64,000 bases of DNA. It comes from Candidatus Spongiihabitans sp. GTDB lineage: Bacteria > Pseudomonadota > Gammaproteobacteria > Arenicellales > Poriferihabitantaceae. Location: the NCBI RefSeq assembly GCF_965247905.1, contig NZ_OZ252047.1, forward strand, positions 196,938 to 260,937. Reading direction: 5' to 3'. Made by a program: the position numbers and the translations under genes. Of this stretch, positions 2,764-50,530 are shown piece by piece. Position 1 is the stretch's first letter. Every line of letters starts with the position of its first letter. The notes beneath the pieces are model-generated. The model saw only the letters and a program-made list of their open reading frames with translations. It searched no databases and was not told where the DNA came from.

Positions 2764-5229
2764 ATGATTAGCGACTATTCATGGATGAAATTAAAAGGAT
2801 TGCCTATGAGGATTGATCGTGGCGTTCGGTTGCCGGCTTCAATATATTTACTTGCCTTTTCCAGTGGCGTAATCGGCCATCGTTTTCTCGATGCGTTAAT
2901 CCCGCTATGGGTAACCTTGGTCGCCTTGCTGTTTTGTGCGCTTGTGGCGTATTGGAAGAACGCGGCGCGGTGGGTGTTTGTATTTGCCCTCGGTGTGGCC
3001 TGGACAAATTTCACTGCTACAAACTTGTTGCATACCACGATTGATAGCGCATTGGAAAAGCAGGATGTGGTGGTGAGCGGAAAAATAGTCGGCGTGCCGG
3101 TGCAAACGCCGCGCTATTCGCGATTTGATTTTGTCGTCGACACCCTGACCTGGCAAGGCAAAGCCTATGATTCGCCCGGCAAGATAAGATTAAAAGCCTA
3201 CCACAACGCCGATGTATTCAAGGCGAATCAGGCTTGGCGGTTCACCGTGCGCCTGAAGCAAGCGCGCGGCTATCAAAATCCAGGCAGTCGATTCAACTAT
3301 GAAACCTATTTGTTTGAACACCGCATTCGTGCGACCGGGTATGTTCGCAACGAAGCGTCCAATCGGCTGCTTAACCCAAGCCTGAATAAATATTCCATTT
3401 CAAAATTCCGCGAGCGCATCAGCACATTTATCCAAATCCATATGCGGGACGCCCCTCGCCACGGCATATTGACCGCCCTGATCGTTGGCGTAAGGGGCGC
3501 GATGAGCGATGCCGACTGGCGTATTTTGCAAAATACCGGAACCATCCACCTGGTCGCGATTTCCGGGCTGCATATCGGTTTGGTTTCCGGGTTGGTAATG
3601 TGGGTGGCGGCACGGGTTTGGCGCTTGACCGGGCAACTGCAAACCCGAATACCGGCGCAAAATGTTGCGGTGATTTCAGGGTTGGTCGCAGGATGTTGTT
3701 ACGCCTTGCTGGCGGGGATGACAATCCCCACCCGGCGCGCGGTTGTTATGTTATCCGTAGTCGCGATATCGATGTTGTTAAAAAGAAAGCCGGTGCCGTT
3801 TGAGTTGTTGATTCTGGCGCTGAGTGTCGTTTTGCTGGTCGATCCACTGACTCCGCTGGCTACCGGATTCTGGCTGTCTTTCTGTGCGGTGGCGGTGATC
3901 ATTTGTTGCGTGACAAAACTCAATCAAAATACCCGCCACGAAAACACTCGCCACATAAATACTCGACCCGGCAACAAGTACTCGCTTCCCGAAAAAACCA
4001 AAGGGTGGCTGTCCATCCAACTGGGCTTGAGTTTTGGAATGGCGCCGCTGTTATTGCTGCTGTTCCATCAACTGTCGTTAATCGCGCCGCTGGCGAATTT
4101 GGTCGCCATTCCCGTGATTGGCTTCGTCGCGGTGCCGGCGGCATTGTTCGGTTTGTGCTTGTTTGCTTTGGGGTTTCCCGAATTGGCTTTGGTGGTATTT
4201 GAGTATGTGCTGATTGCCATCGATCATGTTTGGTCGGTTTTGCAGTTCCTGGCCGCCGCCAACTGGTCGGTCTGGCAACCCCCGTCCGCGCCCATTTGGG
4301 CTTTGATGCTGGCTGCTGTTGGCGCCGCTTTGCTGTTTTTCCGCCCGCCGTTTCCGGCAAGATTCACAGCGGTTTTATGGTTTTTACCGCTGCTCTTTTT
4401 CCAGCCTGAAAAGCTCGGTCACGGCGCATTCAAATACACCATGCTCGAGGTCGGTCATGGCTTGGCCAGCGTAGTGGAAACCCAAAACCATACCCTGGTT
4501 TACGATACCGGACCGAAATTCAATGGTGGCATGGATGCGGGCAAGACGGTGGTCGTGCCTTATCTAAAGTCCCGTGGTATCCGCAATATCGATAAATTGA
4601 TAATCAGCCATGAACACAGTGATCATGCCGGCGGTTATCGAGCCATCAATAGCGTATTTAATATCGATCATTTTCTTGCTGGAGTGCCCGATAAAATTGA
4701 TGGCGCACCATTACTTGCGGAAAAATGTCTGGGTGGGCAGAAATGGCTCTGGGATGGGGTTCGCTTCGAAATACTGTGGCCGCTGAACCACGACTTTGCG
4801 AAAGGCAATAATGCGTCATGCGTGCTTAAAATTAGCTCCAGATTCGGCTCGTTGCTTCTGACCGGCGATATAGAAGGTCCAGCGGAAAGAATGATGGTGG
4901 CGAGGCACGGCGAGCGGCTCGCTGCCGATATACTGCAGGTGCCGCATCAGGGAAGCAAGACCTCATCAACGACAACATTTTTGAGCCGGGTCAAGCCGAA
5001 ATTGGCGCTATTGAGCAGCGGATACCTCAATCAATTCGGTCACCCCCATCAAGTCATTTCTGAGCGATATGCGTTGCGACAAATTCCCCTGATCGATACC
5101 GCTCACAGCGGTGCGCTGACTATAAATTTCGACCACACTCAACAACAGCTAAACCATCGGCCAAACTATCGAGACGGCCTGAACGGATACTGGTTTGAGC
5201 CGAAGGGTGCGACAAACAATACGCTATAA
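2764..5229 (+). CDS. comEC: DNA internalization-related competence protein ComEC/Rec2
   Basis: Polytopic membrane competence domain followed by a C-terminal metallo-beta-lactamase motif (ISHEHSDHAGG). The start may be the internal Met at about 2806. Confidence 0.9.
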   Translation: MISDYSWMKLKGLPMRIDRGVRLPASIYLLAFSSGVIGHRFLDALIPLWVTLVALLFCALVAYWKNAARWVFVFALGVAWTNFTATNLLHTTIDSALEKQDVVVSGKIVGVPVQTPRYSRFDFVVDTLTWQGKAYDSPGKIRLKAYHNADVFKANQAWRFTVRLKQARGYQNPGSRFNYETYLFEHRIRATGYVRNEASNRLLNPSLNKYSISKFRERISTFIQIHMRDAPRHGILTALIVGVRGAMSDADWRILQNTGTIHLVAISGLHIGLVSGLVMWVAARVWRLTGQLQTRIPAQNVAVISGLVAGCCYALLAGMTIPTRRAVVMLSVVAISMLLKRKPVPFELLILALSVVLLVDPLTPLATGFWLSFCAVAVIICCVTKLNQNTRHENTRHINTRPGNKYSLPEKTKGWLSIQLGLSFGMAPLLLLLFHQLSLIAPLANLVAIPVIGFVAVPAALFGLCLFALGFPELALVVFEYVLIAIDHVWSVLQFLAAANWSVWQPPSAPIWALMLAAVGAALLFFRPPFPARFTAVLWFLPLLFFQPEKLGHGAFKYTMLEVGHGLASVVETQNHTLVYDTGPKFNGGMDAGKTVVVPYLKSRGIRNIDKLIISHEHSDHAGGYRAINSVFNIDHFLAGVPDKIDGAPLLAEKCLGGQKWLWDGVRFEILWPLNHDFAKGNNASCVLKISSRFGSLLLTGDIEGPAERMMVARHGERLAADILQVPHQGSKTSSTTTFLSRVKPKLALLSSGYLNQFGHPHQVISERYALRQIPLIDTAHSGALTINFDHTQQQLNHRPNYRDGLNGYWFEPKGATNNTL

Positions 5230-5352
5230 CGCACCGGCGCTGATAAAATTTAAGTTCCTCAAATAACTATCGGCAACTACCGGCAATCTATTTGCGCTTA
5301 ATCGTGCATGTGGATATAATGAACTCCCTTTTATCTCAGAAGTGAGGATGGT

Positions 5353-6723
5353 ATGGAGTATTTAAATAATCTAATCAGTCAAATCAACGCCTTCGTCTGG
5401 GGGCCTCCGATGCTCGGTATGTTGGGTGTTACCGGATTGCTATTGACGCTTGGCCTGGTTTTTATGCCGTGGCGCAAGGTCGCTTACGGGTTTCGGCTGC
5501 TGTTCGCCAAAGACGATGGCAGCGGCGAGGGTGAAGTCAAGCCATTTAATGCGCTGATGACCGCGTTATCGGCGACCGTCGGCACCGGTAATATCGCTGG
5601 CGTGGCAACTGCCATCGCTCTCGGCGGACCCGGCGCAATTTTTTATATGTGGGTCATCGCCCTGTTCGGGATGGCGACCAAATACGCCGAGGCGGTGTGT
5701 GCGGTAACCTATCGTGAAGTCGATTCAACCGGTAAATACGTCGGCGGGCCGATGTATTATTTGAGCCGTGGGGTCGGCGAGTTCGCGCCCGGGCTCGGTA
5801 AAAGCCTGGGCTTTTTGTTTGCCTTGTTTGGCGCCATCGCCGCTTTCGGTATCGGTAACGCAGTGCAGGTTAATTCCATGGCGGCGGTGTTGAATGATAG
5901 TTTCAACGTTCCCACTTATGCGACCGGCATCGTTGTCGCCGCGCTGGTGGGGTTTGTGATTTTGGGCGGAATCAAGCGTATCGGTGATGTCGCCGGTAAG
6001 TTGGTGCCGGCGATGATCGTTTTATATGTCGGTGCGTCGCTGGTTATCATCCTGATAAACATTGCTGAAGTGCCGGCCGCAATAGGGTTGATTTTCAAAT
6101 ACGCCTTTGAACCGGCCGCCGCCGCGGGTGGATTTGCGGGTGCTGCTGTGGCTGCTGCCATTCGTTTCGGTGTGGCGCGTGGTGTATTTTCCAATGAAGC
6201 TGGCCTCGGTTCTGCGGCTATCGCCCATGCTGCTGCCAAAACCGACAACCCGGTGCGTCAGGGAATCATCGCCATGCTCGGTACGTTCATTGACACCCTC
6301 GTTGTGTGCACCATGACGGCATTGGTGATTTTAACCTCTGGCGCGTGGACTAGCGGACTAAATGGTGCGGTGTTGACCTCAACCGCCTTTTCCAACTCCA
6401 TCGGCGGTGGGCAATATATCGTTACCATCGCACTGGCGGTTTTCGCGTTCACCACCATTTTGGGCTGGTCGTACTACGGCGAGCGTTGTTGGCAGTACCT
6501 GTTTAAAGAAAAAACGGTGATAATTTACCGTGGTTTGTGGGTGCTGGCGGCATTGGGCTTCGCCAATGTCAAGGTGGATTTCGTATGGAATCTAGCCGAC
6601 ACGCTCAACGGGCTGATGGCAGTGCCGAACCTGGTTGGTCTGTTACTGTTGGCGCCGATGGTGTTTAAGGTGACCAGCGACTATTTCGATAAAGAAAAGA
6701 AGTTAGCCGACCGCGACGGATGA
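5353..6723 (+). CDS. Alanine/glycine:cation symporter (AGCS family)
   Basis: 456-aa polytopic protein with AGCS hallmarks (FNALMTALSATVGTGNIAGVATAI, GGPGAIFYMW, FSNEAGLGSAAIAHAAA). Confidence 0.9.
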   Translation: MEYLNNLISQINAFVWGPPMLGMLGVTGLLLTLGLVFMPWRKVAYGFRLLFAKDDGSGEGEVKPFNALMTALSATVGTGNIAGVATAIALGGPGAIFYMWVIALFGMATKYAEAVCAVTYREVDSTGKYVGGPMYYLSRGVGEFAPGLGKSLGFLFALFGAIAAFGIGNAVQVNSMAAVLNDSFNVPTYATGIVVAALVGFVILGGIKRIGDVAGKLVPAMIVLYVGASLVIILINIAEVPAAIGLIFKYAFEPAAAAGGFAGAAVAAAIRFGVARGVFSNEAGLGSAAIAHAAAKTDNPVRQGIIAMLGTFIDTLVVCTMTALVILTSGAWTSGLNGAVLTSTAFSNSIGGGQYIVTIALAVFAFTTILGWSYYGERCWQYLFKEKTVIIYRGLWVLAALGFANVKVDFVWNLADTLNGLMAVPNLVGLLLLAPMVFKVTSDYFDKEKKLADRDG

Positions 6724-6901
6724 CGGCGGTGGCGGCAACGCCATCGCTGTCGCCATCGTCACCAGCACGGTGATCACCGCGACCGTCGCCGTTCGCGTGA
6801 CATCGGCGGCGGGCATTGCGCGTATCACGGATGATGCGCGCAAATCCGCCCCGCGGTTGACCGTCGCCGCGCGTGTCCGTAGCATTTCCTGAGCATTCAT
6901 T

Positions 6902-7900
6902 TTGAGCAATCACGTTCTGGTCACCGGCGGCGCGGGCTACATCGGCTCGCACACCGCATGGCATCTGGTCGCGGCCGGGCACGAAGTCGCGGTGCTGGAT
7001 AACCTGTATTCCGGGCATCGCTGGGCGGTGCCCGGCGGCGCGGCGTTTTACCAAGGCGACATCCACGACCGCGCGTTGCTCGACGAAATAATCCGCGCGC
7101 GCGGCATCGACGCGGTGATGCACTTCGCCGGTCACATCATCGTGCCCGAGTCGCTGGAAAATCCCGCCAAGTATTACCGCAACAACGTGGTCGGCTCGCT
7201 CAACTTGATCGACGCCTGCATCGCCAACCGCGTCCGCCATTTCATATTTTCATCCAGCGCGGCGGTGTATGGCGCGCCGGAGTTTTGCCCGGTCAGCGAA
7301 GCCGCCGCGCCGCGCCCAATCAACCCTTATGGCGCGACCAAGTTAATCACCGAATGGACGCTGCGCGATTTATCGGCGGCGTCGCGGTCGTTCAATTATG
7401 TCGCGTTGCGCTACTTCAACGTCGCCGGCGCGCACGCCGACGGTGCCCTCGGGCAAGCCACGCCCGAGGCCACCCATCTAATCAAAGTCGCGTGCCAAGT
7501 CTCGACCGGCGCGCGCCCGCGCATGACGATTTTCGGCGATGACTACCCGACGCCCGACGGCACTTGTGTGCGCGATTACATTCATGTGGATGACTTGGCA
7601 TCCGCGCATCTCGACGCGCTCGACTACCTCGCGCGTGGCGGCGGCGACAGCGTCGTGCTGAACTGCGGCTACGGTCGCGGGTTCAGCGTGCGCGAAGTGA
7701 TTGATTGCGTCAAGACCGTGAGCGATGTGGACTTCGCAGTGAAGACCGCGCCGCGCCGCGCCGGCGATCCGCCGGAGTTGGTCGCCGACAATGAAAAAAT
7801 CAAGCGCGTCTTAAACTGGCAGCCGCGCCACGACGACCTCGCGACCATCTGCCGTTCTGCTTACCTGTGGGAGAAAAAACTCGCGGCGGAAAAAAGTTGA
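6902..7900 (+). CDS. galE: UDP-glucose 4-epimerase
   Basis: N-terminal Rossmann motif VLVTGGAGYIGSH, catalytic YGATK, and GalE-typical length (332 aa). TTG start. Confidence 0.9.
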   Translation: MSNHVLVTGGAGYIGSHTAWHLVAAGHEVAVLDNLYSGHRWAVPGGAAFYQGDIHDRALLDEIIRARGIDAVMHFAGHIIVPESLENPAKYYRNNVVGSLNLIDACIANRVRHFIFSSSAAVYGAPEFCPVSEAAAPRPINPYGATKLITEWTLRDLSAASRSFNYVALRYFNVAGAHADGALGQATPEATHLIKVACQVSTGARPRMTIFGDDYPTPDGTCVRDYIHVDDLASAHLDALDYLARGGGDSVVLNCGYGRGFSVREVIDCVKTVSDVDFAVKTAPRRAGDPPELVADNEKIKRVLNWQPRHDDLATICRSAYLWEKKLAAEKS

Positions 7901-7920: not shown

Positions 7921-9531
7921 ATGACGCGGTTGTGGCAAAAAGACCTGTCCCTGTGGCACCAAGCCGAAGTGGACGGCGGTTGCAGTTCGGATTCCATCGC
8001 CAACCGCCTGGGTTGGCTGGATGCGGTTGAATGGATGGAGGAGCATGTCGGCACGCTCGGCGACTGGGCGCGACAGGTCGCCGAGTCCGGCCAATTCGAC
8101 CAGGTTATTTTATTGGGCATGGGCGGTTCCAGCCTTGCCGCCGAGGTGTTTTCGGCGGTGTTTGGCAGTCAATCAGGCTACCTGCGACTGCAGGTTGTGG
8201 ACACCACATCGCCGGCGCAAATCAATGCGCTTGATGTCGATCTTGGGCGCTCTTTGATTATGGTCGCCAGCAAATCCGGCGGCACGGTGGAGACCGCGGA
8301 TTTATTCGCCTACTTTCATTCCAGATTGCAAGCGCAGGTGAATCGCCCCGGCGACCATCTGGTCGCCATTACCGATCAAGATTCGCGGCTTCATCGGCAA
8401 GCCATTGACATGAATTTCACGCGTGTTTTTGTTAACCCGTCCGACATCGGCGGGCGCTATGCCGCGTTGAGCTATTTTGGCTTGGCGCCGGCCGCGTTGA
8501 TGGGCGTTGACCTGAACCGGTTACTGGCGCAAACCCGGGCGTTTAGTGCGAGTTGTCGATCAGACGATGCCAGCAATCCAGTGCTTCAGTTGGCGAGATT
8601 GATGGGCAATGGAGCAATCGCGGGCAAACCTGTTTTGGAACTGCGGCTGGCTCGGCCGTTGCAATCCTTGGCGGTTTGGATTGAGCAACTGGTTGCGGAA
8701 AGCACCGGCAAAGATGCGCAGGGCATCCTGCCGGTGTACGATGAGCCGGGAATCGATGCGCTTGAGCACGGATATAATCGCTCCGAGCATCGCTCCGAGC
8801 ATCGAGCCAGCGTGTATGTCGGGCTTGGCGACGCGTCGCAAGAGGGGCAAACCACCGCCGATATGCAGTGGCAACTGGGTGATCGATACGACCTTGGGAG
8901 GGAGTTTCTGCGCTGGGAAATGGCCACCGCGCTTGCGGCAAGCATCATGGGAATCAACCCATTCGACCAACCCGATGTGGAACAAGCGAAGCAGCAGACG
9001 CGCGCATTTGTGGCCGGTCGGGAAGCGCACGCGTTCAGCAGATTATTTGAAAACCAGCACTACGCGGTGTATGCCGATTGCGCGGACGACCATGCCGCCA
9101 CCGCGGCGGCGGTGTTCGACCATTTCCGCGACGCCGCCGATGGCGCGTGGTATTTGGCGGTGCTGGCGTATCTGCCGAATTTCGACGCGGTCAACGACCG
9201 ACTGCAAGCGCTGCGCCGCGGGTTGGCGCAACGCTTTGCATTGACCACGACATTGGGTTACGGCCCGCGTTATTTGCACTCCACCGGGCAGTTGCACAAA
9301 GGCGGACCAGCGGGCGGATGCTTCATCCAGATCACCGAGCAGGATATGGATGACATCGCCATCCCCGGGCGCGAATATGGTTTCGCTGATTTGCACCGCG
9401 CGCAAGCCGACGGCGATTACGCCGTGTTGCAGCGCAAAGGTCGTCCGCTAATGCGGATAACATTAAAAGGCGATAGACTGGGGGCTTTGGACAAACTGGC
9501 GACGCACTTGACCGCCAAACGCGGCACATAA
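7921..9531 (+). CDS. Glucose-6-phosphate isomerase-like SIS-domain protein (PGI domain of the transaldolase/PGI type)
   Basis: SIS motifs [10 protein letters not shown] and [10 protein letters not shown]. The ATG at 7921 ([12 protein letters not shown]) is preferred because the track start at 7867 overlaps the galE end. Confidence 0.7.
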
Positions 9532-9532
9532 T

Positions 9533-10471
9533 ATGGTTACATTTCAACAGCTTATAATGACATTGCAGCAATACTGGGCCGATCAAGGCTGTGTCATTCT
9601 GCAACCCTATGATATGCAGATGGGTGCGGGAACATTTCATCCGGCAACGTTTTTGGGCGCCATAGGCCCGGAACCGATGCGCGCCGCTTATGTGCAGCCG
9701 TCGCGTCGCCCCACAGACGGTCGCTATGGTGAAAACCCCAATCGTTTGCAACACTATTTCCAGTTTCAGGTGGTACTGAAACCATCCCCGGAAAATTTCC
9801 AGGACTTGTATCTTGGCTCCCTGTCCAGCCTTGGGCTGGATATGTTGAAGGACGACGTGCGATTTGTAGAAGATGATTGGGAGTCACCGACTTTGGGTGC
9901 CTGGGGTCTGGGATGGGAAATCTGGATAAACGGCATGGAGGTTTCTCAATTTACTTATTTCCAACAAGTGGGTGGTTTGGATTGCAAGCCCGTTACCGGT
10001 GAAATCACCTATGGTCTGGAGCGCATCGCCATGTATTTACAAGGTGTGGATTCGTTGTTTGATTTAGTTTGGCGCGAGGGTTCAAATAGCGCCACAGCCG
10101 GATACAGTTATGGCGATCTTTACTTGCAAAATGAAGTGCAGCAGTCGGTTTATAATTTTGAATGTTCAGGTATCCCGCAGCTTTTTGATCAATTCAATGC
10201 GACGGAAGCCATGGCGCTAAAATTATTGGAAAAGGAATTGCCCTTACCCGCCTATGAACAAATGCTGACCGCTTCCCATGCCTTTAATTTACTGGATGCT
10301 CGACATGCCATCGGTGTGACCGAGCGCGCCCGATATATTGGGCGGGTGCGTCAGTTGGCAAAGGGCGTGGCGCAACGCTATTACGATAGCCGGGAAAAAC
10401 TCGGCTTTCCCGGCTGCGTCAAAACCGCGCCGCGGCGGCCGCGACGGCGAGCGAAAGCGGGGACGCGATGA
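9533..10471 (+). CDS. glyQ: Glycine--tRNA ligase alpha subunit
   Basis: Highly conserved GlyQ sequence ([17 protein letters not shown]...[26 protein letters not shown]). Confidence 0.95.
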
Positions 10472-17299: not shown

Positions 17300-19705
17300 T
17301 CAGTCCTTACCGCCGTTTCTTTTAAGCAGTTTTTCCACTGTAGTACTCCCTGTTTGCTTCGCGAAATGCAACGGTGTTTCGCCATAATCATTTGTCGCGT
17401 TTATATCCGCACCGTTTTGAATCAGTAGTGCGGCGACTTTGCCCGCATCTTTCAACGCGGCATGATGCAACGGCGTGTAGCCTTTGTTATTTTTCGCGTT
17501 TATATCCGCACCTTTTTGAATCAGTAGTGCGGCGACTTTGTCCGCATCCTTCCACGCGGCAACATGCAACGGTGTGTCGCCATCATCACGTTTCGCGTTT
17601 ATATCCGCACCTTTTTGAATCAGTAGTGCGGCGACTTTGTCCGCATCCTCCACAGCGGCATAATGCAACGGTGTTGCGCCAGAACCATTTTTCGCGTTTA
17701 TATCCGCACCTTTTTGAATCAGTAGTGCGGCGACTTTGCCCGCATCCAGCCACGCGGTAAAATGCAACGGTGTTGCGCCATCATCACGTTTCGCGTTTAT
17801 ATCCGCACCTTTTTGAATCAGTAGTGCGGCGACTTTGTCCGCATCCTCCACAGCGGCATAATGCAACGGTGTTGCGCCAGAACCATTTTTCGCGTTTATA
17901 TCCGCACCTTTTTGAATCAGTAGTGCGGCGACTTTGCCCGCATCCAGCCACGCGGTAAGATGCAACGGTGTTGCGCCATCATCATTTTTCGCGTTTATAT
18001 CCGCACCTTTTTGAATCAGTAGTGCGGCGACTTTGCCCGCATCATCCCGCGCGGCACCATGCAACGGCGTTTCGCCATATTTATTTTTCGCGTTTATATC
18101 CGCACTCTTTTTAATCAATAGTGCGGCGACTTTGCCCGCATCATTCCACGCGGTAAAATGCAACGGTGTGTCGCCAGGACCATTTTTCGCGTTTATATCC
18201 GCACCTTTTTGAATCAGTAGTGTGGCGATTTTGTCCGCATCATTCGCCGCGGCATAATGCAACGGTGTGTCGCCATCCCTATGCCAGCCATCATAATTCC
18301 TCCCGAACAAGCGCGGTGTTGTCTTCAATCCATCTGTCATGAGTTTGTTATCGGATTTTAATTTGGCATCCACCTTGGCGCCGGATTGCAACAGATGCTC
18401 CGCCAGCGTTGTGAAGTTCAACGTGGCAGCGTAGTGCAAGTCAGTCCAGTCGTTAGCATCCTTCGCCGTCGGCGAAGGCGGACGCCCGACCTTTGCCATA
18501 AATTGGGCAGTTTCATCGGCGAGGCGGGCGGCTTGTTCAGCAGCGATTCGTTGTTTTTCTTCCTCGGCGGCGATTCGTTGTTTTTCTTCATCGGCAGCAA
18601 TACGCTGTTGTTCTTGTTCAGCAACGATTCGTTGTTGTTCCTGCCATTTTTGATAGTGATTGCCGCCAAAAAACAACGCAGTAAACAGCAACAAAACGGC
18701 TATTATCACCAGCGGTTTTTTATGCGACGGGCGGGCTTCCGGTTTGGGGTTTTGCGGTGACGGAGGTGTGGCGTCGGGGGCTGTGCTAGGCACGGGGGCG
18801 GTGTCGACCGAAGGGCTTTCACCACCAAGCATCCGCAACCATTGCCCGACATCCTGCGGACGGTCTTTGGCATTTATCGATAAAGCGGATTCTATCGCCG
18901 CGATAAATTCGCCGCTGTAGCCTTCCGCCGACAATCGCGTCATCGGGTCCGGATTGCCAGTCGCCACTTCGGTGATACGCCAACTGCCTTCGGGCGGAGG
19001 GTGCCCGCTGATGGCGCGATACAACACCGCAGCCAGCGCGTATATGTCCGTGTATGCGCCCTGTCCGCCGCGCGTGGAATACTGCTCTGGCGGCGAATAA
19101 CCGGCTTTGACTATCGCGCTGATGCTGCGGCTACGTATCCCTATGGCTTGCCGCGCGGCACCAAAATCCAACAGCACCGGGCTGCCATCGGCACGGATGA
19201 TGATGTTGTCCGGCGAGATGTCGCGGTGCAATAATCCATCGGCATGCATGTGCTTGAGGGCATCCAGCAACGGGGCGATTATCGCGCCCAATGCGGGTTC
19301 GGATGGCGGTTGCGACAACGATTGCAGGTGCGCTTCGAAGCTCAAGCCGTCTTCGTAATCCAGCACCATATACGCGGTGTTATTGTCCTCAAAAATTTGA
19401 TGTACGCGCACGATGTTGGCGTGTCGAAATTTGGCGAGGTTGCGCGCTTCTTCCAAAAATCGGTCCAAGCCCCAGCGGTAATCTTCTTCATTACCGGCCG
19501 ATTTTGGATGCACGGTAACCCCCTCGCGCATCGCGAACTCGTTCGGCAGGTATTCCTTGACGGCAAAGCACGCGTGCAGGTCGGTGTCTTCCGCCAAATA
19601 GGTGACGCCGAAACCGCCTACGCCTAATACCGACAAGATTTCATATTGCCGCAACCGAGTTTCGGGCGGCAGTGCGGCTTTGTGTTCGGGGTCGGAGTGT
19701 TGCAT
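17300..19705 (-). CDS. Ser/Thr protein kinase - TM - coiled-coil - 11x ankyrin repeat protein
   Basis: Hanks kinase motifs (GVGGFGVTY, AVKEY, HRDISPDNII, DFGAAR, SPPE). Pro-rich linker. One TM helix (KKPLVIIAVLLLFTALFFGG). EQQRIAA 9-aa repeats. Then 11 ANK repeats (G.TPLH.AA....KVAALLIQKGADINAKN). Confidence 0.9.
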   Translation of the reverse strand: MQHSDPEHKAALPPETRLRQYEILSVLGVGGFGVTYLAEDTDLHACFAVKEYLPNEFAMREGVTVHPKSAGNEEDYRWGLDRFLEEARNLAKFRHANIVRVHQIFEDNNTAYMVLDYEDGLSFEAHLQSLSQPPSEPALGAIIAPLLDALKHMHADGLLHRDISPDNIIIRADGSPVLLDFGAARQAIGIRSRSISAIVKAGYSPPEQYSTRGGQGAYTDIYALAAVLYRAISGHPPPEGSWRITEVATGNPDPMTRLSAEGYSGEFIAAIESALSINAKDRPQDVGQWLRMLGGESPSVDTAPVPSTAPDATPPSPQNPKPEARPSHKKPLVIIAVLLLFTALFFGGNHYQKWQEQQRIVAEQEQQRIAADEEKQRIAAEEEKQRIAAEQAARLADETAQFMAKVGRPPSPTAKDANDWTDLHYAATLNFTTLAEHLLQSGAKVDAKLKSDNKLMTDGLKTTPRLFGRNYDGWHRDGDTPLHYAAANDADKIATLLIQKGADINAKNGPGDTPLHFTAWNDAGKVAALLIKKSADINAKNKYGETPLHGAARDDAGKVAALLIQKGADINAKNDDGATPLHLTAWLDAGKVAALLIQKGADINAKNGSGATPLHYAAVEDADKVAALLIQKGADINAKRDDGATPLHFTAWLDAGKVAALLIQKGADINAKNGSGATPLHYAAVEDADKVAALLIQKGADINAKRDDGDTPLHVAAWKDADKVAALLIQKGADINAKNNKGYTPLHHAALKDAGKVAALLIQNGADINATNDYGETPLHFAKQTGSTTVEKLLKRNGGKD
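17380..18260. repeat. 99-bp-period tandem DNA repeats encoding ankyrin repeats, including a near-perfect 198-bp duplication
   Basis: Units at about 17563-17760 and 17761-17958 are almost identical. The antisense track ORFs 17374-17760 and 17770-17958 end in identical 55-aa strings. Confidence 0.85.
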
Positions 19706-19719
19706 GGGGGAATTATAGT

Positions 19720-20553
19720 TTATGGTGCGGCAAAAACGCCCAGCAAAATTGGCGCAACCAAAGAGCTTTGTGTTTCCGTATATCGCCCTTTTCCGGCATC
19801 TTTGAGTTGCCGCAAAAACCGCTTGACCTCATCACCATCACCATCGCTGGTATTGACGGTGGTCACCGATCTTTTATCAATCGCCGAAAAACGCCGCGCG
19901 CCCGAAAGAATCGCGTTCTCCGTTCCGGGGTGCGGAACATCATCGGTTACCACCACAATCGTTTGTATTTCTGATTCGGTTCGCCACGGCGATTTCAGCG
20001 CCAGCTCAAAACCGCCCCCCAAATTCTCACCATCAGTGTCGTTATTGCCGTCGCCGCCACCAGCAGTAATCAGCACCAGGGCAGATTGTAAAGTTTTCAA
20101 TGAACTATCGGATGCGCTGATTTTTTGCAGTCGGAAGTAGGTATATCGCGCCGGATTTATGCCCTTGTCGTTAAAACCGATGATGCCAATCGCGACTGAC
20201 GGGGCGAGTTTTTCCAGCACTTCCGCCAAGTTACCCAACTCTTGTTTTAACGCGGCTATCTCTTCGCTCATGCTGCCGGTGGTATCCAACACAATCACCA
20301 CGTCCAAAGGTGGCAGTTGATGTTTTGGGGATTTCTTCAATTCACTAATCTGTGCGGCTTGCTGCGCTATGGTTTGCTCTTTTTGGTAGAGTTCGGTTTT
20401 GAGGGCGGCGAGTTCCTGGCGCAAATCAGGGACTTCTTTTTTATAGTATGGCAGGGCGATGACCGCAATAAGAATAAACGCCCCCATTGCCGATGCGAAC
20501 AAATCCAACGCCGACATGCTGAATATTTCCAGCCCTTTGCTGCGGCTTCTCAC
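19720..20553 (-). CDS. Membrane-anchored coiled-coil von Willebrand factor A (vWA) protein with an ExbD/TolR-like N-terminal anchor
   Basis: N-terminus RSRSKGLEIFSMSALDLFASAMGAFILIAVIALP is one TM helix with an Asp at its start. It is followed by a coiled coil (LRQELAALKTELYQKEQTIAQQAAQISELK) and a vWA domain with MIDAS-like VIVLDTTGSMSEE and VVVTDD. The GTG start overlaps the PP2C stop (GTGA). Confidence 0.8.
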   Translation of the reverse strand: MRSRSKGLEIFSMSALDLFASAMGAFILIAVIALPYYKKEVPDLRQELAALKTELYQKEQTIAQQAAQISELKKSPKHQLPPLDVVIVLDTTGSMSEEIAALKQELGNLAEVLEKLAPSVAIGIIGFNDKGINPARYTYFRLQKISASDSSLKTLQSALVLITAGGGDGNNDTDGENLGGGFELALKSPWRTESEIQTIVVVTDDVPHPGTENAILSGARRFSAIDKRSVTTVNTSDGDGDEVKRFLRQLKDAGKGRYTETQSSLVAPILLGVFAAP

Positions 20554-21347
20554 GGGCTGGGGGGCGGTTTTATTGCAAGCACAGTAACATTATCCTGATG
20601 TGGCGCACCCCGGGATTCTGTTTTTGCTACCAATGCGGCGGTGATATCGCTTGCGGTTTGTTGGCGCATGGAGTGCAGACAATCGGCGATTTCATCCTGC
20701 GTTAATGTGAGCAACCCATCGCTGGCCACCACAATTATCGGCGGAGCGGCACCATCCCATGCAATGCTGTTTTCGTCAACCAGCGCAATATCTTCACCCA
20801 TTAAAGCGGAACGCAAGGCATGCCGTTGTGAGTTTATTTTCGCATCTTCGCTCGATATTTTGCCTTCCATCACCGCTTGGTCCAACAACCCCCCCAGAGA
20901 ATGGTCGGCATTAATCTTTTGTAGCTGTTCGTCCATAAATATATATAAAAGCGAGTCACCAACGCTAATCCAGTGCAATGTGTCGTTATGGAGTAGTGTC
21001 GCAATCAATGTGCAGCCCATGCCGGTTAGTGAATTGTCTTCGCGTATTTTTGCGGCTAATGCACAGTTTGCCGCATGTAGCATATCCGTGGAAAGTTGTG
21101 GAATAGTACTTTCATCACATGACGCAGAAAAAGAAGAAATAAACTCTTTTACGGAAATTTCAGCAGCATCCGCGCCGCCCGCATGTCCACCCATGCCGTC
21201 TGCCAGCACCGCCAGCGTAGTGTTGGCATTGACCGGAAAGAATGCGTAAAAATCCTCCTGGCGCTCACGTTTCCCCTGTGCCGCACAACCTGAAAAATCT
21301 TTTTCTCTTTTCAGGACAGGTCTTCCCAATCGAAATCTGCGCCGCAA
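20550..21347 (-). CDS. PP2C-family Ser/Thr protein phosphatase
   Basis: PP2C motifs RERQEDF, VLADGMGGHAGG, VGDS, VVASDGL. The exact start is uncertain because the TTG at 21347 overlaps the upstream FHA gene by 37 nt. Confidence 0.9.
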   Translation of the reverse strand: MRRRFRLGRPVLKREKDFSGCAAQGKRERQEDFYAFFPVNANTTLAVLADGMGGHAGGADAAEISVKEFISSFSASCDESTIPQLSTDMLHAANCALAAKIREDNSLTGMGCTLIATLLHNDTLHWISVGDSLLYIFMDEQLQKINADHSLGGLLDQAVMEGKISSEDAKINSQRHALRSALMGEDIALVDENSIAWDGAAPPIIVVASDGLLTLTQDEIADCLHSMRQQTASDITAALVAKTESRGAPHQDNVTVLAIKPPPSP

Positions 21348-21784
21348 AACGGCACGAGTTGCAATACGGTTTTCCCCATTTTAATTTCATCGCCATGCTT
21401 GATTTCTCGCGGCTCTAACACAGGATCCTCGTTCAAGTAGGTGAGATTTTTTCCGTGACCGTGGCGTAGGTAAAACTTTCTGCCACGACCGTCATAAATC
21501 ACTTCGGCTTGATTTTCGCGTGCGATTTCGCTGTCGTTCACATCCAAGCAAACTGCGCAGTCCGCCGCCCGACCAATAATATTGACACCGTAGTGCAACG
21601 GAAAACTTTTTCCTCTTCGAGAACCGGAAACAGCCACCAACCAGCCGGTAACCGGCTCCAAATCTTCACTTTCGTTGCTTTCAGAAGGTGGTCGGTAAAC
21701 GGTGGTTTTCGGAGCGTCTGGGTTTTTCTTTTCGGGAGCGCTGCGGCGCAACATCCGCGTGGTATTTTCGGGATTGTCGGTCAT
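21311..21784 (-). CDS. FHA-domain protein (disordered Pro/Glu/Thr-rich N-terminus plus FHA)
   Basis: FHA core: GWLVAVSG...GKSFPLHYGVNIIGRAADCAVCLD...SEIARENQAEVIYD...FYLRHG...NLTYLN...GDEIKMGKTVLQLVPF. Confidence 0.85.
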   Translation of the reverse strand: MTDNPENTTRMLRRSAPEKKNPDAPKTTVYRPPSESNESEDLEPVTGWLVAVSGSRRGKSFPLHYGVNIIGRAADCAVCLDVNDSEIARENQAEVIYDGRGRKFYLRHGHGKNLTYLNEDPVLEPREIKHGDEIKMGKTVLQLVPFCGADFDWEDLS

Positions 21785-21796
21785 GAGTTTTACCTA

Positions 21797-22624
21797 TTAG
21801 TTCTTGTAAAGCCGATTGACAAGATTGTCAAGACAATACTGTACGCAGGTATTGAGCACGCTTTCTTCTTCGCCTTGCACGGCATGAAAAAAGAACACTA
21901 AAATCGACGCTTGAATCAACGCCAGCAAAGTAGTGTTAAACGCGACCGCCATTTTATTGGTGAGCTGTGACACGAAGTTGACACATTCGGGAACGCCCTC
22001 GCCACCGGCATATGCCAACGCATATGCGATGCCGAACACCGTGCCGATAAATCCGAGCGTGGGAATGAGCCACATGACATAGCGCAAAAAGTTATAACGT
22101 AGATCCAATTCATGTAAAAACAACTCGGCACTGGAGTTAAGCAGGCTGTTGGCTTGGTCAACCGCTCGCGAAGATTGAAACTGCAAAATGACACGCTTCG
22201 CCATACGTGGCAAAAAAGAAACGGCGGGGCGTGCGGTTAGCGTGCGATATATCTCGGGTAGCTGGGCGGCGGTCAGCACTGTTTCATCGTCCTCCGGCAA
22301 CAACCCTCTGTCGCATTCGGCGCGGTCATTTTTCGCCGAACGCAGACGCTTTGTTAATTCTCCCAAGCCGCCAAAAAATAAAATCCACATTAAATTTTGC
22401 AATGAGATTGGATAAAATTGAAATTCCCGGTCAATCAGCAATGCACCGATAAGCGACTCTTTCTGGTCGCCCAATAAAGGACTTTCAACGACACATTCCG
22501 GCGGCAACTCTCCGGTGGATATATTTTTATTTTCAAGCGGCAACCAGAAATGCAGCAATATCACGAACAACAATCCGATAACACCACCTCCGGCAAATCC
22601 AACAATTGTTTGGGCTGGACGCAC
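21797..22624 (-). CDS. MotA/TolQ/ExbB-family proton-channel-like membrane protein
   Basis: The C-terminal signature LRYVMWLIPTLGFIGTVFGIAYA...MAVAFNTTLLALIQASILVFFFH matches the conserved MotA_ExbB TM pair (..P.LGLLGTV.G....AL.TT..GL..A). An N-terminal TM helix is present. Confidence 0.8.
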   Translation of the reverse strand: MRPAQTIVGFAGGGVIGLLFVILLHFWLPLENKNISTGELPPECVVESPLLGDQKESLIGALLIDREFQFYPISLQNLMWILFFGGLGELTKRLRSAKNDRAECDRGLLPEDDETVLTAAQLPEIYRTLTARPAVSFLPRMAKRVILQFQSSRAVDQANSLLNSSAELFLHELDLRYNFLRYVMWLIPTLGFIGTVFGIAYALAYAGGEGVPECVNFVSQLTNKMAVAFNTTLLALIQASILVFFFHAVQGEEESVLNTCVQYCLDNLVNRLYKN

Positions 22625-22626
22625 GT

Positions 22627-23016
22627 TTATTTTTTTATAATCTCGCCGGTGATCGGGTCGCGTTTAACTGTGGCGGATGAGTTTATTGGATCGGCTGTTT
22701 GATTTTGTGGCGGAGGCGATACTTGCGAAAGAACTGCCATCGCTTCGGTCGAACCCGCCAACAACTGATGAACGACGACGACATATTCGCCCAACATCAT
22801 CATCGTTTTCGGGGTGATTGGATGCGGTCCGTGAACCGGTTGCCATTGCCCGTCAACGCGAATTTTGGTTCCGTTCGCGCTGTTATCATCCGAAACAAAC
22901 ATCTGATCCCGCGAATACAGGGTAATAGTGCAGTGCAATCGGCTGACCGTGCTATTGGAGACACGAACCAAACAACTCTCGGCACGCCCGACAGTCACTA
23001 CGATGGGTTCATTCAT
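22627..23016 (-). CDS. Small FHA-domain protein, first gene of the operon
   Basis: FHA core VTVGRAESCLVRVSNSTVSRLHCTITLYSRDQMFVSDDNSANGTKI. Its stop lies 2 nt before the MotA-like start. Confidence 0.85.
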   Translation of the reverse strand: MNEPIVVTVGRAESCLVRVSNSTVSRLHCTITLYSRDQMFVSDDNSANGTKIRVDGQWQPVHGPHPITPKTMMMLGEYVVVVHQLLAGSTEAMAVLSQVSPPPQNQTADPINSSATVKRDPITGEIIKK

Positions 23017-24022: not shown

Positions 24023-25063
24023 ATGACTAACAAACTGGAATACGATCTGGTAGGGATTGCGGAAATTGCTGAAATTGCAGGAATTTCCCGGCAGGCCGTG
24101 GTTAATTGGCGCGCCAGATTCCCAAATTTTCCTGTTCCAGCTGTTGAACTTAAATCCGGGCCGGTTTTCCGGCGATCACAAATCCGTGCATGGCTACACG
24201 CCAGGAGGTTTCCAATGGCACATATAATTTCAACTATTAATCTTAAAGGCGGGGTTGGAAAGACCCACACCACTGTGGCATTAGCCGAGGTGTATTCGGC
24301 ATCGTTTAATAAAAAGGTGTTGGTTATTGATTTGGACCCGCAGACCAACGCCACTATAATGCTCATCGGCGAAGAGCGATGGAGTGAGTTGAACGAGAAT
24401 GGTTATACCTTGGCGAGGTTATTCAAAGATGCATTGAACCCCGACACCGCTACTTTCGACATTGAGAAGACCCTACAAAAACGCGTGTCTGATGTGCGGG
24501 CGGCTAACTCGATAGATCTCTTGCCCTCCAGTTTGGATTTGATAGATGTGCAGGATCGATTAGCCACCGTGCCATCGGGTAAATTTTATGCAGTTAATCC
24601 AATTGAGCTTTTGAGTAGGGCTGTGAAACCTATTGTTGACGATTACGACATTGTGCTAATTGATTGTCCTCCGAATCTCGGGATTATCACCTTGAACGGT
24701 TTGCGTATATCCAGTGGTTACATTATCCCCACTATTCCAGACATCCTTTCGACATATGGTATTCCGCAAATCATAAAACGGGTGAAGGAGTTCTCCAAAC
24801 AAATAGCCGAGCCCATTGATCCGTTAGGTATAGTGATTTCCAAGTATCGCGAACAATCGAATGTACATCGGAACACTGTAAAGCGGCTAGGTGACAATTT
24901 TGATGCACCGCTGTTTCATACCATTATTAAAGAGAGTAATGATCTTGCGAGTGCTGCGGAATACGGCTCTACTAACACCTTGAAGCAAAAGTATAGTTAC
25001 CATGGGCTGGTAGAAGTATACGAATCTTTGGCAACAGAAATTTTGGGAGCGTTGGGAGAATGA
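24023..25063 (+). CDS. HTH-fused ParA/Soj-family ATPase
   Basis: N-terminal excisionase/MerR-like HTH (IAEIAGISRQAVVNWRARFPNFP...FRRSQIRAWL). This is followed by the deviant Walker A NLKGGVGKTHT, DLDPQ, and Walker B VLIDCPP. Confidence 0.85.
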   Translation: MTNKLEYDLVGIAEIAEIAGISRQAVVNWRARFPNFPVPAVELKSGPVFRRSQIRAWLHARRFPMAHIISTINLKGGVGKTHTTVALAEVYSASFNKKVLVIDLDPQTNATIMLIGEERWSELNENGYTLARLFKDALNPDTATFDIEKTLQKRVSDVRAANSIDLLPSSLDLIDVQDRLATVPSGKFYAVNPIELLSRAVKPIVDDYDIVLIDCPPNLGIITLNGLRISSGYIIPTIPDILSTYGIPQIIKRVKEFSKQIAEPIDPLGIVISKYREQSNVHRNTVKRLGDNFDAPLFHTIIKESNDLASAAEYGSTNTLKQKYSYHGLVEVYESLATEILGALGE

Positions 25064-25439: not shown

Positions 25440-25866
25440 AGTAATCACTATTTCTCATGAAGCAACACTTTAAGCACTTGCTCGCGCAAGCGGTGGACGA
25501 GTTGTGTCGGCAGGGCGTGTTGGAGCAGGGCGCGGATGCGGTTGCCGACCTTTATCAAGCGCGTTGGCAGGTGGAATTGTTCTTTAAGTGGATCAAGCAA
25601 AACCTGAAGATAAAGTCCTTCATCGGCGCCGGCAATAACGCGGTGATGACGCAAGTCTGGGTCGCGCTGTGCGTGTGTTTACTCTTGGCGTTCATCAAAT
25701 TCCAGTCGCGGCTGGGCAAAAGCATGCGACAAATGCTCCGCCTGTTGCATCTTGACTTGTTCGACAAGCGCGACTTGATGGCGCTCTTGCGTGGCGACCC
25801 GCCCCCCAGGCCCGGCTTCAATCGCAATCAATCCTCGTTGCTGTGAAAGTTAATGGGACAGCAGTG
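25440..25866 (+). pseudogene. IS4-family transposase 3' remnant plus IS terminus (copy 2)
   Basis: Contains the DDE C-terminal Y-2-R-3-E-6-K signature (LYQARWQVELFFKWIKQNLKIKSF). It ends with the same terminus as copy 1. Confidence 0.8.
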
Positions 25867-44811: not shown

Positions 44812-44894
44812 TTGCATATTCCACACCACGACAACCAGAACCAGCCGATCGTAAACCGCAACGACAGCAGGGCTCCACTGTGTTTCTTTAACAT
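44812..44894 (+). pseudogene. 5' fragment (27 codons) of a second iolB paralog, split by the IS30 composite transposon
   Basis: GGAG followed by a TTG start at 44812. It reads (M)HIPHHDNQNQPIVNRNDSRAPLCFFN and joins in frame to 52905 onward (IVKLKKRETF...) once the transposon and one CAT copy are removed. Confidence 0.6.
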
Positions 44895-45955: not shown

Positions 45956-46031
45956 TTATTAAAAACCGTAACATCGATAATATAAACAGTTACTGAGGAA
46001 TCCCCAATTTCAGTGCCAATGCCATTGAGAA

Positions 46032-50386: not shown

Positions 50387-50530
50387 TTTAATTCCGTAAA
50401 CCTGAAGAGCAATGTCCTGCTGCTCCGCCAGCCAAATGCTCCATTCGACGGCACTGCCTAGAGCAAGACCCTCTGTGGACATTTCACGCTCGGGTGTAAT
50501 GACGACAGGGTTTAGCGGCTCTTGGGCCAT
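50387..50530 (-). pseudogene. Original first 48 codons of the giant GHKL/DUF3883 gene, separated by MITE-B
   Basis: MAQEPLNPVVITPEREMSTEGLALGSAVEWSIWLAEQQDIALQVYGIK joins in frame to PSQLVADQRREEGISRDYKGREILELLQNAADA when the MITE and one TSD copy are removed. Confidence 0.7.

Follow-up and report, generated by a model that had tools for sequence, protein, structure and literature searches.

What is known of bacterial receptor Ser/Thr kinases comes mostly from two kinds of examples, the PASTA kinases (cell wall) and PpkA (type VI secretion system, T6SS). PpkA, PppA and Fha1 make up the threonine-phosphorylation pathway of the H1 T6SS of Pseudomonas aeruginosa. TolA and TonB share a layout of an N-in transmembrane (TM) helix, an A/E/Q/R-rich helix and a C-terminal interaction domain, and among the ankyrin (ANK) "eukaryote-like proteins" of sponge symbionts, the usual form is a soluble or secreted protein made of ANK repeats only. 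The architecture of PpkA has been described (PMC1262709), genomes of sponge symbionts show a strong enrichment in ANK proteins (PMC4850255), ANK genes vary among strains in Wolbachia wPip (PMC2045654), and Bd3460 of Bdellovibrio provides a precedent for an ANK domain working in the periplasm (PMC4686830). In Deinococcus radiodurans, the DRA0331-DRA0334 operon encodes vWA, STPK, FHA and PP2C domains and is reportedly tied to DNA-damage signalling (bioRxiv 10.64898/2026.01.23.701218).

The gene analyzed here (17300..19705, minus strand) lies in a 64-kb window, by which we mean the whole stretch of DNA that was analyzed. Its 801-aa product is identical to WP_424947182.1, annotated as [quoted passage not shown]. 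We consider it reasonably probable that this product is a receptor kinase with a periplasmic array of 11 ANK repeats, encoded by the last gene of a six-gene phospho-signalling operon, and that the array evolves by in-frame recombination. Pfam searches yielded Pkinase at aa 21-241 (E = 2.7e-30, 106 bits, cut-off 31.7) and Ank families (E = 7.8e-74; PF00023, 239.8 bits), the latter being the only matches past the TM helix. The overall layout was found as originally predicted, with a Ser/Thr kinase, one TM helix, four 27-bp repeats and 11 ANK repeats. In the kinase domain (aa 1-300, 18806..19705, minus strand; PF00069), predicted to be cytoplasmic, all Hanks-type features could be read from the sequence, namely the Gly-rich loop (GVGGFG, 28-33), the VAIK Lys (K50), the alphaC Glu (E86), HRD (160-162), the catalytic Asn (N167) and DFG (180-182). 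These columns are nearly invariant across relatives (family alignments, n = 105 and n = 51), and the kinase is, as judged by motif, catalytically intact. Neither a PASTA nor a vWA ectodomain was found on it using Pfam and NCBIfam, whose PknB_PASTA_kin model covers the kinase part alone (118 bits vs. a cut-off of 450). Like the PknB/Stk1-type kinases (kinase-TM-PASTA), the protein is predicted to be N-in and single-pass with an extracytoplasmic repeat sensor, and it has a partner PP2C; unlike them, it carries no PASTA but an ANK solenoid on a helical stalk, belongs to a Gram-negative envelope and has other operon partners.

The operon context was not part of the original prediction. The kinase gene is the last of six minus-strand genes, in the order FHA, ExbB-like, FHA, PP2C, TolR-like-vWA and kinase, which overlap or are spaced by 2-14 nt. 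The first gene (22627..23016, minus strand) encodes an FHA-domain protein of 129 aa (Pfam FHA, E = 1.6e-09). It is followed by a gene for a MotA/TolQ/ExbB-family membrane protein with three hydrophobic segments (21797..22624, minus strand; PF01618 MotA_ExbB, 42.3 bits, cut-off 22.9), which shows weak similarity to ZorA (phmmer against the PDB gave marginal ZorA matches alone, E = 0.56). The second FHA-domain protein (21311..21784, minus strand; 157 aa; Pfam FHA, E = 1.8e-10) has a Thr-rich disordered N-terminus, and the next gene encodes a PP2C-type Ser/Thr phosphatase (20550..21347, minus strand; Pfam PP2C_2, E = 4.6e-12) that scores 140.6 bits with NCBIfam Stp1_PP2C, under the 230-bit cut-off. 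The vWA partner (19720..20553, minus strand; Pfam VWA_2/VWA) has at its N-terminus a TM helix bearing an invariant Asp (FSMSALDLFASAMGAFILI), followed by a helical stalk and then by a vWA domain; the frame in the window gives 277 aa, and the public record starts at M13 (265 aa). Numbered in the 277-aa frame, this Asp is D17. It belongs to the conserved motif FSMSALDLFAS and does not vary across an alignment of 34 homologues; the motif itself recurs almost unchanged in 120 homologues. An AF2 model of the partner (pLDDT 87) contains a helix at 13-74 followed by the vWA fold at 83-274. By its motif, the N-terminus is read as TolR/ExbD/MotB-like; no ExbD, TolR or MotB profile was matched in Pfam, and the family profile searched against the PDB returned vWA/integrin only.

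This operon shares genes for a kinase, a PP2C and FHA proteins with the PpkA/PppA/Fha1 pathway. It differs from that pathway in that the vWA domain lies on a separate TolR-like protein, the kinase ectodomain is an ANK array, and the gene set includes an ExbB-like gene and a pair of FHA genes. A role in T6SS threonine phosphorylation was rejected because no T6SS gene is present among the window ORFs scanned against Pfam; NCBIfam TagH reached 30 bits in the window vs. a cut-off of 120. The D. radiodurans operon DRA0331-DRA0334 brings together the same four domain types but, as far as described, lacks an ExbB-like gene, a TolR-like TM on its vWA protein and an ANK ectodomain.

A genome scan recovered this set of genes, hereafter the module, at 424 loci in species-representative genomes from several phyla. 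When 82 loci were analyzed, a kinase was present in 75, PP2C in 69, and ExbB-like and FHA genes in 66 each; about 20% of the TolR-like-vWA loci have no ExbB-like gene within 10 kb. The module adjoins the orthologous kinase in L001, L002 and L121. The periplasmic slot of the module kinase is interchangeable, being occupied by FGE-sulfatase, Sel1, PEGA, PG-binding, TonB_C or ANK domains. ANK versions occur in sponge-associated lineages, e.g. in a Ca. Poriferihabitaceae MAG (L010), and versions with non-ANK ectodomains in the free-living marine gammaproteobacteria Alteromonas, Aliiglaciecola, Idiomarina and SAR86. One module copy (L012) includes a Trypsin_2-FHA gene between the PP2C and vWA genes, where most other copies show a gap. 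This gene is absent from the window operon, which therefore possibly represents a reduced or altered system and may be a reduced copy of the wider module. PADLOC and NCBIfam contain no model for the module. With its proteins, PADLOC returned generic kinase/ANK models (PD-T4-6, mad6, PDC-M72A) and a weak ZorA match (E ~6e-4) only, and the vWA and FHA proteins gave no PADLOC match. A literature search on the gene combination found no description of the module, nor was coupling of FHA/PP2C/kinase signalling to an ExbB/TolR-type motor found described. The module is apparently widespread and undescribed.

In order to place the ANK array with respect to the membrane, we considered the charges flanking the TM helix and the domains that follow it in relatives. 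The 801-aa protein contains one hydrophobic segment (aa 331-349, PLVIIAVLLLFTALFFGGN, 18659..18715, minus strand; Kyte-Doolittle hydropathy 2.2), immediately preceded by RPSHKK (aa 325-330). In the query kinase, four K+R residues flank the segment on the N side vs. two on the C side; the corresponding means in 92 homologues are 3.9 and 1.4, with N > C in 83. In module-linked relatives, the same post-TM slot holds TonB_C, PG_binding_1, PEGA or FGE-sulfatase domains, all of which are known as periplasmic: the L076 kinase bears two TonB_C domains, PG_binding_1 occurs on two kinases, and PEGA is found together with FGE-sulfatase. The charge bias and the periplasmic domains of relatives support, in silico, the originally proposed N-in/C-out topology with a periplasmic ANK array, which we favour. 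The statement that such an array on a bacterial kinase is unusual was overstated, as kinase-TM-ANK proteins account for 38 of the best 120 database matches; when their ANK counts were compared, these 38 were found to carry 2-13 repeats (HMM count). The TM between kinase and ANK is missing in 7 of 45 kinase-ANK homologues, two of which have a C-terminal TM, and therefore cytoplasmic ANK variants also exist in the family.

Behind the TM helix lies a helical stalk (aa 350-405, 18491..18658, minus strand). It contains four 27-bp tandem repeats (18533-18640) that encode the 9-aa E/Q/R/A repeats EQQRIVAEQ, EQQRIAADE, EKQRIAAEE and EKQRIAAEQ, and TRF reports a 27-bp repeat at 18540-18640 (3.7 copies, 81% matches). 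A single-sequence AF2 model shows one continuous helix at aa 330-405 (pLDDT 65-78) inside a poor whole-protein model (pLDDT 42), from which this TM-plus-stalk helix alone was used. Of the coiled coil proposed earlier, the four repeats and the helix stand; a coiled coil was not established, and the nine-residue period does not correspond to a heptad. The L003 kinases have analogous 30-bp repeats in the stalk.

The ExbB-like protein and its partner, which has a small N-terminal tail and a single Asp-bearing TM, resemble the pairs of the ExbB-ExbD-TonB, TolQ-TolR-TolA, MotA-MotB and ZorA-ZorB systems; unlike in these 5:2 ion-driven motors, the periplasmic domain of the partner is a vWA and not an ExbD/TolR or OmpA-like fold. 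A proton-driven motor of the ExbB/TolR type could be proposed, with the kinase as its third, TolA/TonB-like subunit, an explanation that we regard as distinctly improbable. The kinase TM would then dock on the ExbB-like/TolR-like-vWA complex, the stalk would span the periplasm, the ANK array would contact an outer-membrane or cell-wall partner, and the kinase head would turn mechanical or PMF-dependent movement into Thr phosphorylation. Such an arrangement is consistent with the MotA_ExbB protein in an operon type where canonical ExbD, TolR or MotB was found in none of 83 loci (phmmer with E. coli TolR and ExbD queries), and with the nearly invariant, Asp-bearing N-terminal TM of the vWA partner that continues into one long helix. 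The layout of the kinase itself resembles that of TolA and TonB, and the TonB_C and PG_binding_1 domains of the relatives mentioned above point the same way. However, the kinase TM was read to be without a TonB/TolA SHLS-type motif, the partner matches none of the ExbD, TolR and MotB profiles, and an ExbB-like gene is missing from the neighbourhood of roughly one in five TolR-like-vWA loci.

Apart from the ANK array, the 64-kb window contains no large tandem array. The ANK array comprises 11 repeats at aa 420-796 (broadened ANK HMM). A divergent first repeat (aa 420-452, 18350..18448, minus strand; ANK HMM span and sequence) is followed by an insertion of 25 aa (aa 453-477) and by ten canonical 33-aa repeats (aa 478-801, 17303..18274, minus strand; DNA period 99 bp), the final one being the C-terminal cap. 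TRF reports the 99-bp repeat at 17364-18276 (9.2 copies, 87% matches). Promoter-like matches and antisense ORFs within the array are periodic by-products of the repeat and were rejected as features.

A near-perfect, recent 198-bp tandem duplication had been proposed within the array, and it proved to be real. In the register first given (17563-17760 and 17761-17958), the two units are identical at 195 of 198 positions; in the best (codon) register, copy 1 (17780..17977, minus strand, aa 577-642) and copy 2 (17582..17779, minus strand, aa 643-708) are identical at 197 of 198, with a perfect tract of 183 bp. The lone difference is CTT (Leu) at codon 583 vs. TTT (Phe) at codon 649. The remaining pairs of 99-bp units are identical at 79-90 of 99 positions, and the probability of at least 197/198 against a background identity of 86.4% is ~9e-12. 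The other repeats had been described as diverged, which holds relative to the 198-bp pair only, because they are still about 86% identical in DNA; by sequence, the whole array is young or homogenised. The window comes from a metagenome-derived genome, and the duplication might in principle have arisen in assembly or polishing, as an artefact of the repeats. We consider this very improbable: the copies are not identical and differ nonsynonymously at a hypervariable repeat position, the duplication is precisely in frame and keeps the ANK register, the 3.03 Mb source contig suggests long-read assembly, and similar higher-order periods (297/309 bp) are found in related genes from independent assemblies.

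Exact tracts of 38-183 bp occur at in-frame offsets within the array, and these make it a plausible recombination substrate, as had been suggested. The framework codons of the ANK repeats are identical between repeats even at synonymous sites, and repeat-to-repeat variation is concentrated in nine codons, most of which map to the predicted binding face. Among repeats, the pN/pS ratio amounts to 1.8 overall and to 0.38 for the framework codons, both rough values obtained with few sites from paralogous repeats under gene conversion, with the "variable" class picked after viewing the data. The array would evolve as its 99-bp units undergo gene conversion or recombine unequally in frame. The latest event copied two ANK repeats, with one base changed since. 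Homogenisation would act on the framework codons and leave differences at a few others, which lie largely on the predicted binding face.

The expected variation in repeat number was seen in a sister species (61-63% identity to the window protein in the kinase domain). At four syntenic loci with flanks 97.2-98.4% identical and kinase domains 99% identical, the proteins have 710, 901, 1206 and 1227 aa and carry 6, 6, 13 and 13 ANK repeats, respectively. Three of the four loci come from one sample. When these strains, which belong to one species, are compared, the part up to the TM is ~99% conserved and the part beyond it is rearranged, in the kinase as well as in its vWA partner, a pattern that speaks for the N-in/C-out topology. 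Conspecific alleles of the window kinase were sought by a metagenome scan, in which the closest relative was 48% identical; the 90% protein cluster of the kinase has one member.

As in the ANK "eukaryote-like proteins" of sponge symbionts, the array is consensus-like and the genome is named as that of a sponge symbiont (Ca. Spongiihabitans). A host-directed function should be weighed, in which the array would be exposed or released to sponge cells (e.g. by cleavage or in outer-membrane vesicles) and manipulate phagocytosis or recognition, the kinase would report contact, and repeat variation would reflect host-symbiont co-evolution. The enrichment of ANK proteins in sponge symbionts (PMC4850255), some of which modulate amoebal phagocytosis (PMC4850255, PMC6372511), is in line with this idea, as are the ANK-type module kinases in sponge-linked MAGs such as that of Ca. 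Poriferihabitaceae, the hypervariability of the ectodomain between strains of one sample, and the pN/pS above 1 across repeats with its nine variable codons. We nevertheless regard it as rather unlikely. The TM helix holds the array at the inner membrane, with no evident cleavage site or secretion signal, and host proteins would not be easily within reach of an inner-membrane-anchored periplasmic array. Moreover, the module occurs with non-ANK ectodomains in free-living marine gammaproteobacteria, and therefore its core job is not host-specific. The protein also differs from the sponge-symbiont ANK proteins in that it combines the array with a TM helix and a predicted cytoplasmic kinase and is encoded in a phospho-signalling operon. 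Bd3460 and the wPip ANK proteins are without a kinase fusion. The variation described here consists of 33-codon units gained or lost in frame inside one receptor gene.

In the favoured reading, that of a receptor kinase with a periplasmic array, the catalytic domain would be cytoplasmic, the one TM helix would serve as inner-membrane anchor, and the repeat-built helical stalk and the 11-repeat ANK solenoid would lie in the periplasm. A protein ligand on the concave face of the ANK solenoid would alter kinase activity. The two FHA proteins would recognise phospho-threonines made by the kinase, the PP2C would remove them, and the signal would act on, or arise from, the possibly motor-like membrane complex of the ExbB-like and TolR-like-vWA proteins. 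More tentatively, the kinase might be the sensor arm of a widespread and apparently undescribed envelope machine. An ExbB/TolQ-like channel and a TolR-like, vWA-headed subunit would there be coupled to signalling by Thr phosphorylation, carried out by two or three FHA proteins, PP2C and a receptor kinase with a swappable ectodomain. The kinase would be TolA/TonB-like and cross the periplasm with its repeat-built helical stalk. In this reading, the hypervariability of both the ANK and the vWA head between co-existing symbiont strains would point to diversifying selection on the recognition of a partner or of the host.

The receptor-kinase design found here bears a predicted periplasmic ankyrin solenoid that has been caught while expanding. 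Co-existing strains of a related symbiont that are two-fold apart in repeat number, with flanks 97-98% identical, offer a natural system for the study of binding-surface change. The module ties an ExbB/TolR-like membrane complex to FHA/PP2C/kinase signalling. Should this complex prove to be a motor that is driven by PMF and controlled by phosphorylation, the small set of 5:2 motor systems would gain a new member, and a concrete role in signalling could be assigned to ANK proteins of sponge symbionts.

The ORF at 17300-19705 (minus strand) encodes a protein of 801 amino acids, identical to the public record WP_424947182.1 ('ankyrin repeat domain-containing protein [Candidatus Spongiihabitans sp.]', located on a 3.03-Mb contig). 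Pfam searches identified a protein kinase domain (PF00069, aa 21-241, E 2.7e-30) and several matching ankyrin (ANK) families (PF00023, E 7.8e-74). By reading of the sequence, the Hanks catalytic set is complete (GVGGFG28-33, K50, E86, HRD160-162, N167 and DFG180-182), and its columns are nearly invariant in two alignments comprising 105 and 51 relatives. The sole hydrophobic segment, aa 331-349 (Kyte-Doolittle 2.2; all others ≤1.6), is immediately preceded by RPSHKK and followed by four units of nine amino acids (EQQRIVAEQ, EQQRIAADE, EKQRIAAEE and EKQRIAAEQ), encoded by a 27-bp tandem repeat at 18540-18640. The coiled coil originally predicted for these units is unproven, because their period of nine residues does not match a heptad; they could equally well form one stable helix. 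Only a continuous helix at aa 330-405 reached moderate confidence in the single-sequence AF2 model of the protein, which was poor overall (pLDDT 42). Beyond this stalk, a divergent ANK repeat (aa 420-452), an insertion and ten canonical repeats (aa 478-801) were found, and a broadened ANK HMM gave the same count of 11 repeats that had been predicted.

The kinase gene is the last of six tightly packed operon genes on the minus strand, the others encoding an FHA protein (22627-23016), a member of the MotA/TolQ/ExbB family (21797-22624), a second FHA protein (21311-21784), a PP2C protein (20550-21347) and a protein with a transmembrane (TM) helix and a vWA domain (19720-20553), hereafter the vWA partner. 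Just upstream of the operon, on the opposite strand, lie a gene for a ParA/MinD-like ATPase (AAA_31; 24023-25063, +) and a fragment of a DDE transposase (25457-25846, +). Elsewhere in the window, two IS30-like transposase genes (HTH_38 + rve) form direct repeats at 44910-45887 and 51856-52833, 6946 bp apart and 99% identical over their first 300 nt; they enclose a 1387-aa ORF (46032-50195, -) with no Pfam match, and the region 44894-52833 looks like a composite transposon.

Among 120 homologues of the vWA partner, otherwise 27-53% identical, the N-terminus …EIFSMSALDLFASAMGAFILIAV… is almost invariant. It contains the TM motif FSMSALDLFAS… with an invariant D17, and the sequence used for comparison was that of E. 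coli TolR, SEINIVPLLDVLLVLLLIF. We infer that this N-terminus is a TolR/ExbD/MotB-like TM helix with the essential Asp; profile searches of the vWA partner gave no link to ExbD, TolR or MotB. The reading agrees with the lack of a canonical TolR or ExbD gene in 83 loci, and with an AF2 model (34 sequences, pLDDT 87) in which a single helix (aa 13-74) leads into a vWA fold.

A scan of species-representative genomes detected this gene set, or module, at 424 loci. Its carriers include Gammaproteobacteria (Alteromonas, Aliiglaciecola, Idiomarina, Pseudomonas sp. and SAR86, among others), as well as Rhodothermales, Acidobacteriota, Gemmatimonadota and Binatia; sponge-associated MAGs are numerous among the carriers. 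Of the 82 loci analysed, 66 had the ExbB-like gene, 69 PP2C, 66 FHA and 75 a kinase. The PP2C and vWA genes overlap directly in the window, and most other copies have a gap of ~1.5-2.3 kb between them; at locus L012, this gap holds a Trypsin_2-FHA gene (8597-9988, +, 463 aa), which is absent from the window operon. No model of the gene set was found in PADLOC or NCBIfam, and no description of the combination in the literature searched. Of the systems already described, the closest are PpkA/PppA/Fha1 of the P. aeruginosa T6SS (the PpkA architecture is described in PMC1262709) and the Deinococcus DRA0331-0334 vWA-STPK-FHA-PP2C operon (bioRxiv 10.64898/2026.01.23.701218). No T6SS genes were detected among the window ORFs scanned against Pfam.

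The kinase domain requires ATP and lacks a signal peptide, and the protein has a single TM helix; therefore, the C-terminal part should be located outside the cytoplasm. In the 15-residue flanks of the TM helix, K+R total 4 towards the kinase domain and 2 towards the ANK array; the corresponding averages in 92 homologues whose TM helix closely follows the kinase domain are 3.9 and 1.4 (N>C in 83/92). In 51 loci, the kinase closest to the conserved module was surveyed for Pfam domains; the post-TM slot contained FGE-sulfatase (12 loci), Sel1 (10), ANK (7), PEGA (5), PG_binding_1 (2), CarboxypepD_reg (2) and TonB_C (1), and several of these domains are periplasmic. Moreover, conspecific strains of the sister lineage are ~99% conserved through the TM helix and rearranged beyond it, the pattern expected of an exposed portion. 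Taken together, this indirect and consistent in silico evidence argues strongly for an N-in/C-out topology with a periplasmic ANK array. Cytoplasmic ANK variants do exist in the family, because in 7 of 45 kinase-ANK homologues no TM helix separates the two domains (two of the seven carry one at the C-terminus).

The single TonB_C case, L076 (6680-9493, -; Bryobacterales MAG OY729428.2), is a module-linked kinase of 937 aa whose TM helix lies near aa 435 and whose two TonB_C domains span aa 743-814 and 858-930; its gene adjoins the TolR-like-vWA gene. This hints that module-linked kinases may act in a TonB/TolA-like manner. In a rival reading of the system, the kinase would be a TolA/TonB-like third subunit of the putative motor, as its layout and the variants with TonB_C or PG_binding domains may suggest.

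TRF analysis revealed a 99-bp period at 17364-18276 (9.2 copies, 87% matches), the only large tandem array in the 64-kb window. The near-perfect 198-bp tandem duplication proposed originally was confirmed: the two units as first placed are identical at 195/198 positions, and in codon register the match between aa 577-642 (17780-17977) and aa 643-708 (17582-17779) rises to 197/198, far above the 86.4% background identity of the units (P(≥197/198) ~9e-12). The copies share a perfect tract of 183 bp and differ solely in CTT (Leu583) -> TTT (Phe649); the remaining 34 unit pairs of the array are identical at 79-90/99 positions. An assembly artefact is unlikely, given the one-base difference between the copies, the in-frame duplication and the 3-Mb length of the source contig. 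Antisense ORFs within the array (17374-18300, +; e.g. 17374-17760, 128 aa) and promoter-like matches evenly spaced every 99 bp were rejected as independent features, being periodic by-products of the repeat.

When the nine full canonical units (33 codons each) were aligned codon by codon, 15/33 codons were identical in all of them, synonymous sites included, so the entire array, beyond the two duplicated units, is young or homogenised. Variation is found mainly at codons 2, 7, 8, 10, 11, 14 and 31-33; five of these presumably match the positions of the target-binding face that were reportedly randomised in the DARPin libraries of Binz et al. 2003. The pN/pS ratios (Nei-Gojobori, all 36 unit pairs) were 1.8 overall, 0.38 for framework codons and 3.5 for the variable codons, a class picked after inspection of the data, and all three are rough, given the few sites, the paralogous units and likely gene conversion. 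The codon pattern fits concerted evolution of the scaffold, with selection maintaining differences between surface residues. Exact tracts of 38-61 bp connect units at each 99-bp offset up to 693 bp (183 bp at offset 198). Each 99-bp unit makes up exactly 33 codons, so that unequal recombination is feasible and would always preserve the reading frame.

No further strain of the species turned up: the 90% protein cluster has one member, and in a metagenome scan for alleles of the species the closest relative was 48% identical. In the closest lineage, whose kinase region is 61-63% identical, four syntenic loci with flanks 97.2-98.4% identical and kinase-domain DNA 99.2-99.7% identical encode proteins of 1206 aa with 13 ANK repeats and ~4 copies of a spacer repeat (L001, sample ERZ25073864), 710 aa with 6 and ~2 (L002, ERZ25073868), 901 aa with 6 and ~3 (L121, ERZ25073868), and 1227 aa with 13 and ~5 (L122, ERZ25073868); spacer copies (~65-100 aa) are approximate, as counted by eye. 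Related genes have 99/102-bp units 79-86% identical, higher-order periods of 297/309 bp and 27-30-bp stalk repeats. The suggestion that the array is a substrate for recombinational copy-number variation is thus well supported for the gene family, since near-identical sister loci differ in repeat number. The vWA partners of L001 (11697-12875, -; 392 aa, with vWA) and L002 (10161-10934, -; 257 aa, no Pfam domain on record) are identical bar one substitution over their first 62 aa, covering the TM helix and the start of the stalk, and unrelated beyond, within flanks that are 98% identical. Both predicted periplasmic heads, ANK and vWA, appear hypervariable at the strain level in the sister species. 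Directly upstream of the orthologous kinase, the same four loci carry two to four tandem DUF8196 paralogues (~5000-7850, +). The locus L003 (8001-14841, +; 6.29-Mb contig, sample ERZ26694896) has three tandem receptor kinases, two ANK-type and one FGE-sulfatase-type, with the FHA/PP2C/ExbB module absent from its 18 kb; kinases 2 (ANK-type) and 3 (FGE-sulfatase-type) have post-TM stalks of 30-bp tandem repeats (8.2 and 10 copies).

The best 120 matches to the kinase comprised 38 kinase-TM-ANK proteins with 2-13 repeats, 7 kinase-ANK proteins lacking a TM helix between the two parts and 72 kinases whose C-terminal domains are of other types. The architecture, originally called unusual, thus recurs as a family across genomes and metagenomes and is no isolated case; its rarity was overstated. 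A non-systematic search of the literature on ANK-kinase combinations surfaced no study of bacterial kinase-TM-ANK proteins; precedents are Bdellovibrio Bd3460 for periplasmic ANK (PMC4686830) and Wolbachia wPip for ANK genes varying among strains (PMC2045654).

Given the established domains, operon, conservation, duplication and sister-species allele variation, the best-supported reading describes the protein as a receptor kinase: its periplasmic ANK solenoid would bind a protein ligand, its phospho-threonine output would be recognised by both FHA proteins and reversed by PP2C, and the kinase would act jointly with the ExbB-like/TolR-like-vWA membrane complex. The proposed signalling wiring follows the precedents of PpkA/PppA/Fha1 and PknB/PstP/FhaA, and a motor-like character of the ExbB-like/TolR-like pair is proposed from a sequence motif. 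A host-directed ANK array, another rival reading, would parallel the ANK proteins of sponge symbionts (PMC4850255), but the predicted tethering of the array to the inner membrane and the occurrence of the module in free-living bacteria weigh against it. The original interpretation thus holds in part: the copy-number substrate stands at the level of the gene family, the rarity was overstated and the coiled coil is unproven. The receptor kinase combines known elements, a receptor Hanks kinase and a symbiont ANK array, and its interest comes mainly from the conserved operon, for which no description was found, and from the strain-level hypervariability of what would be both periplasmic heads.
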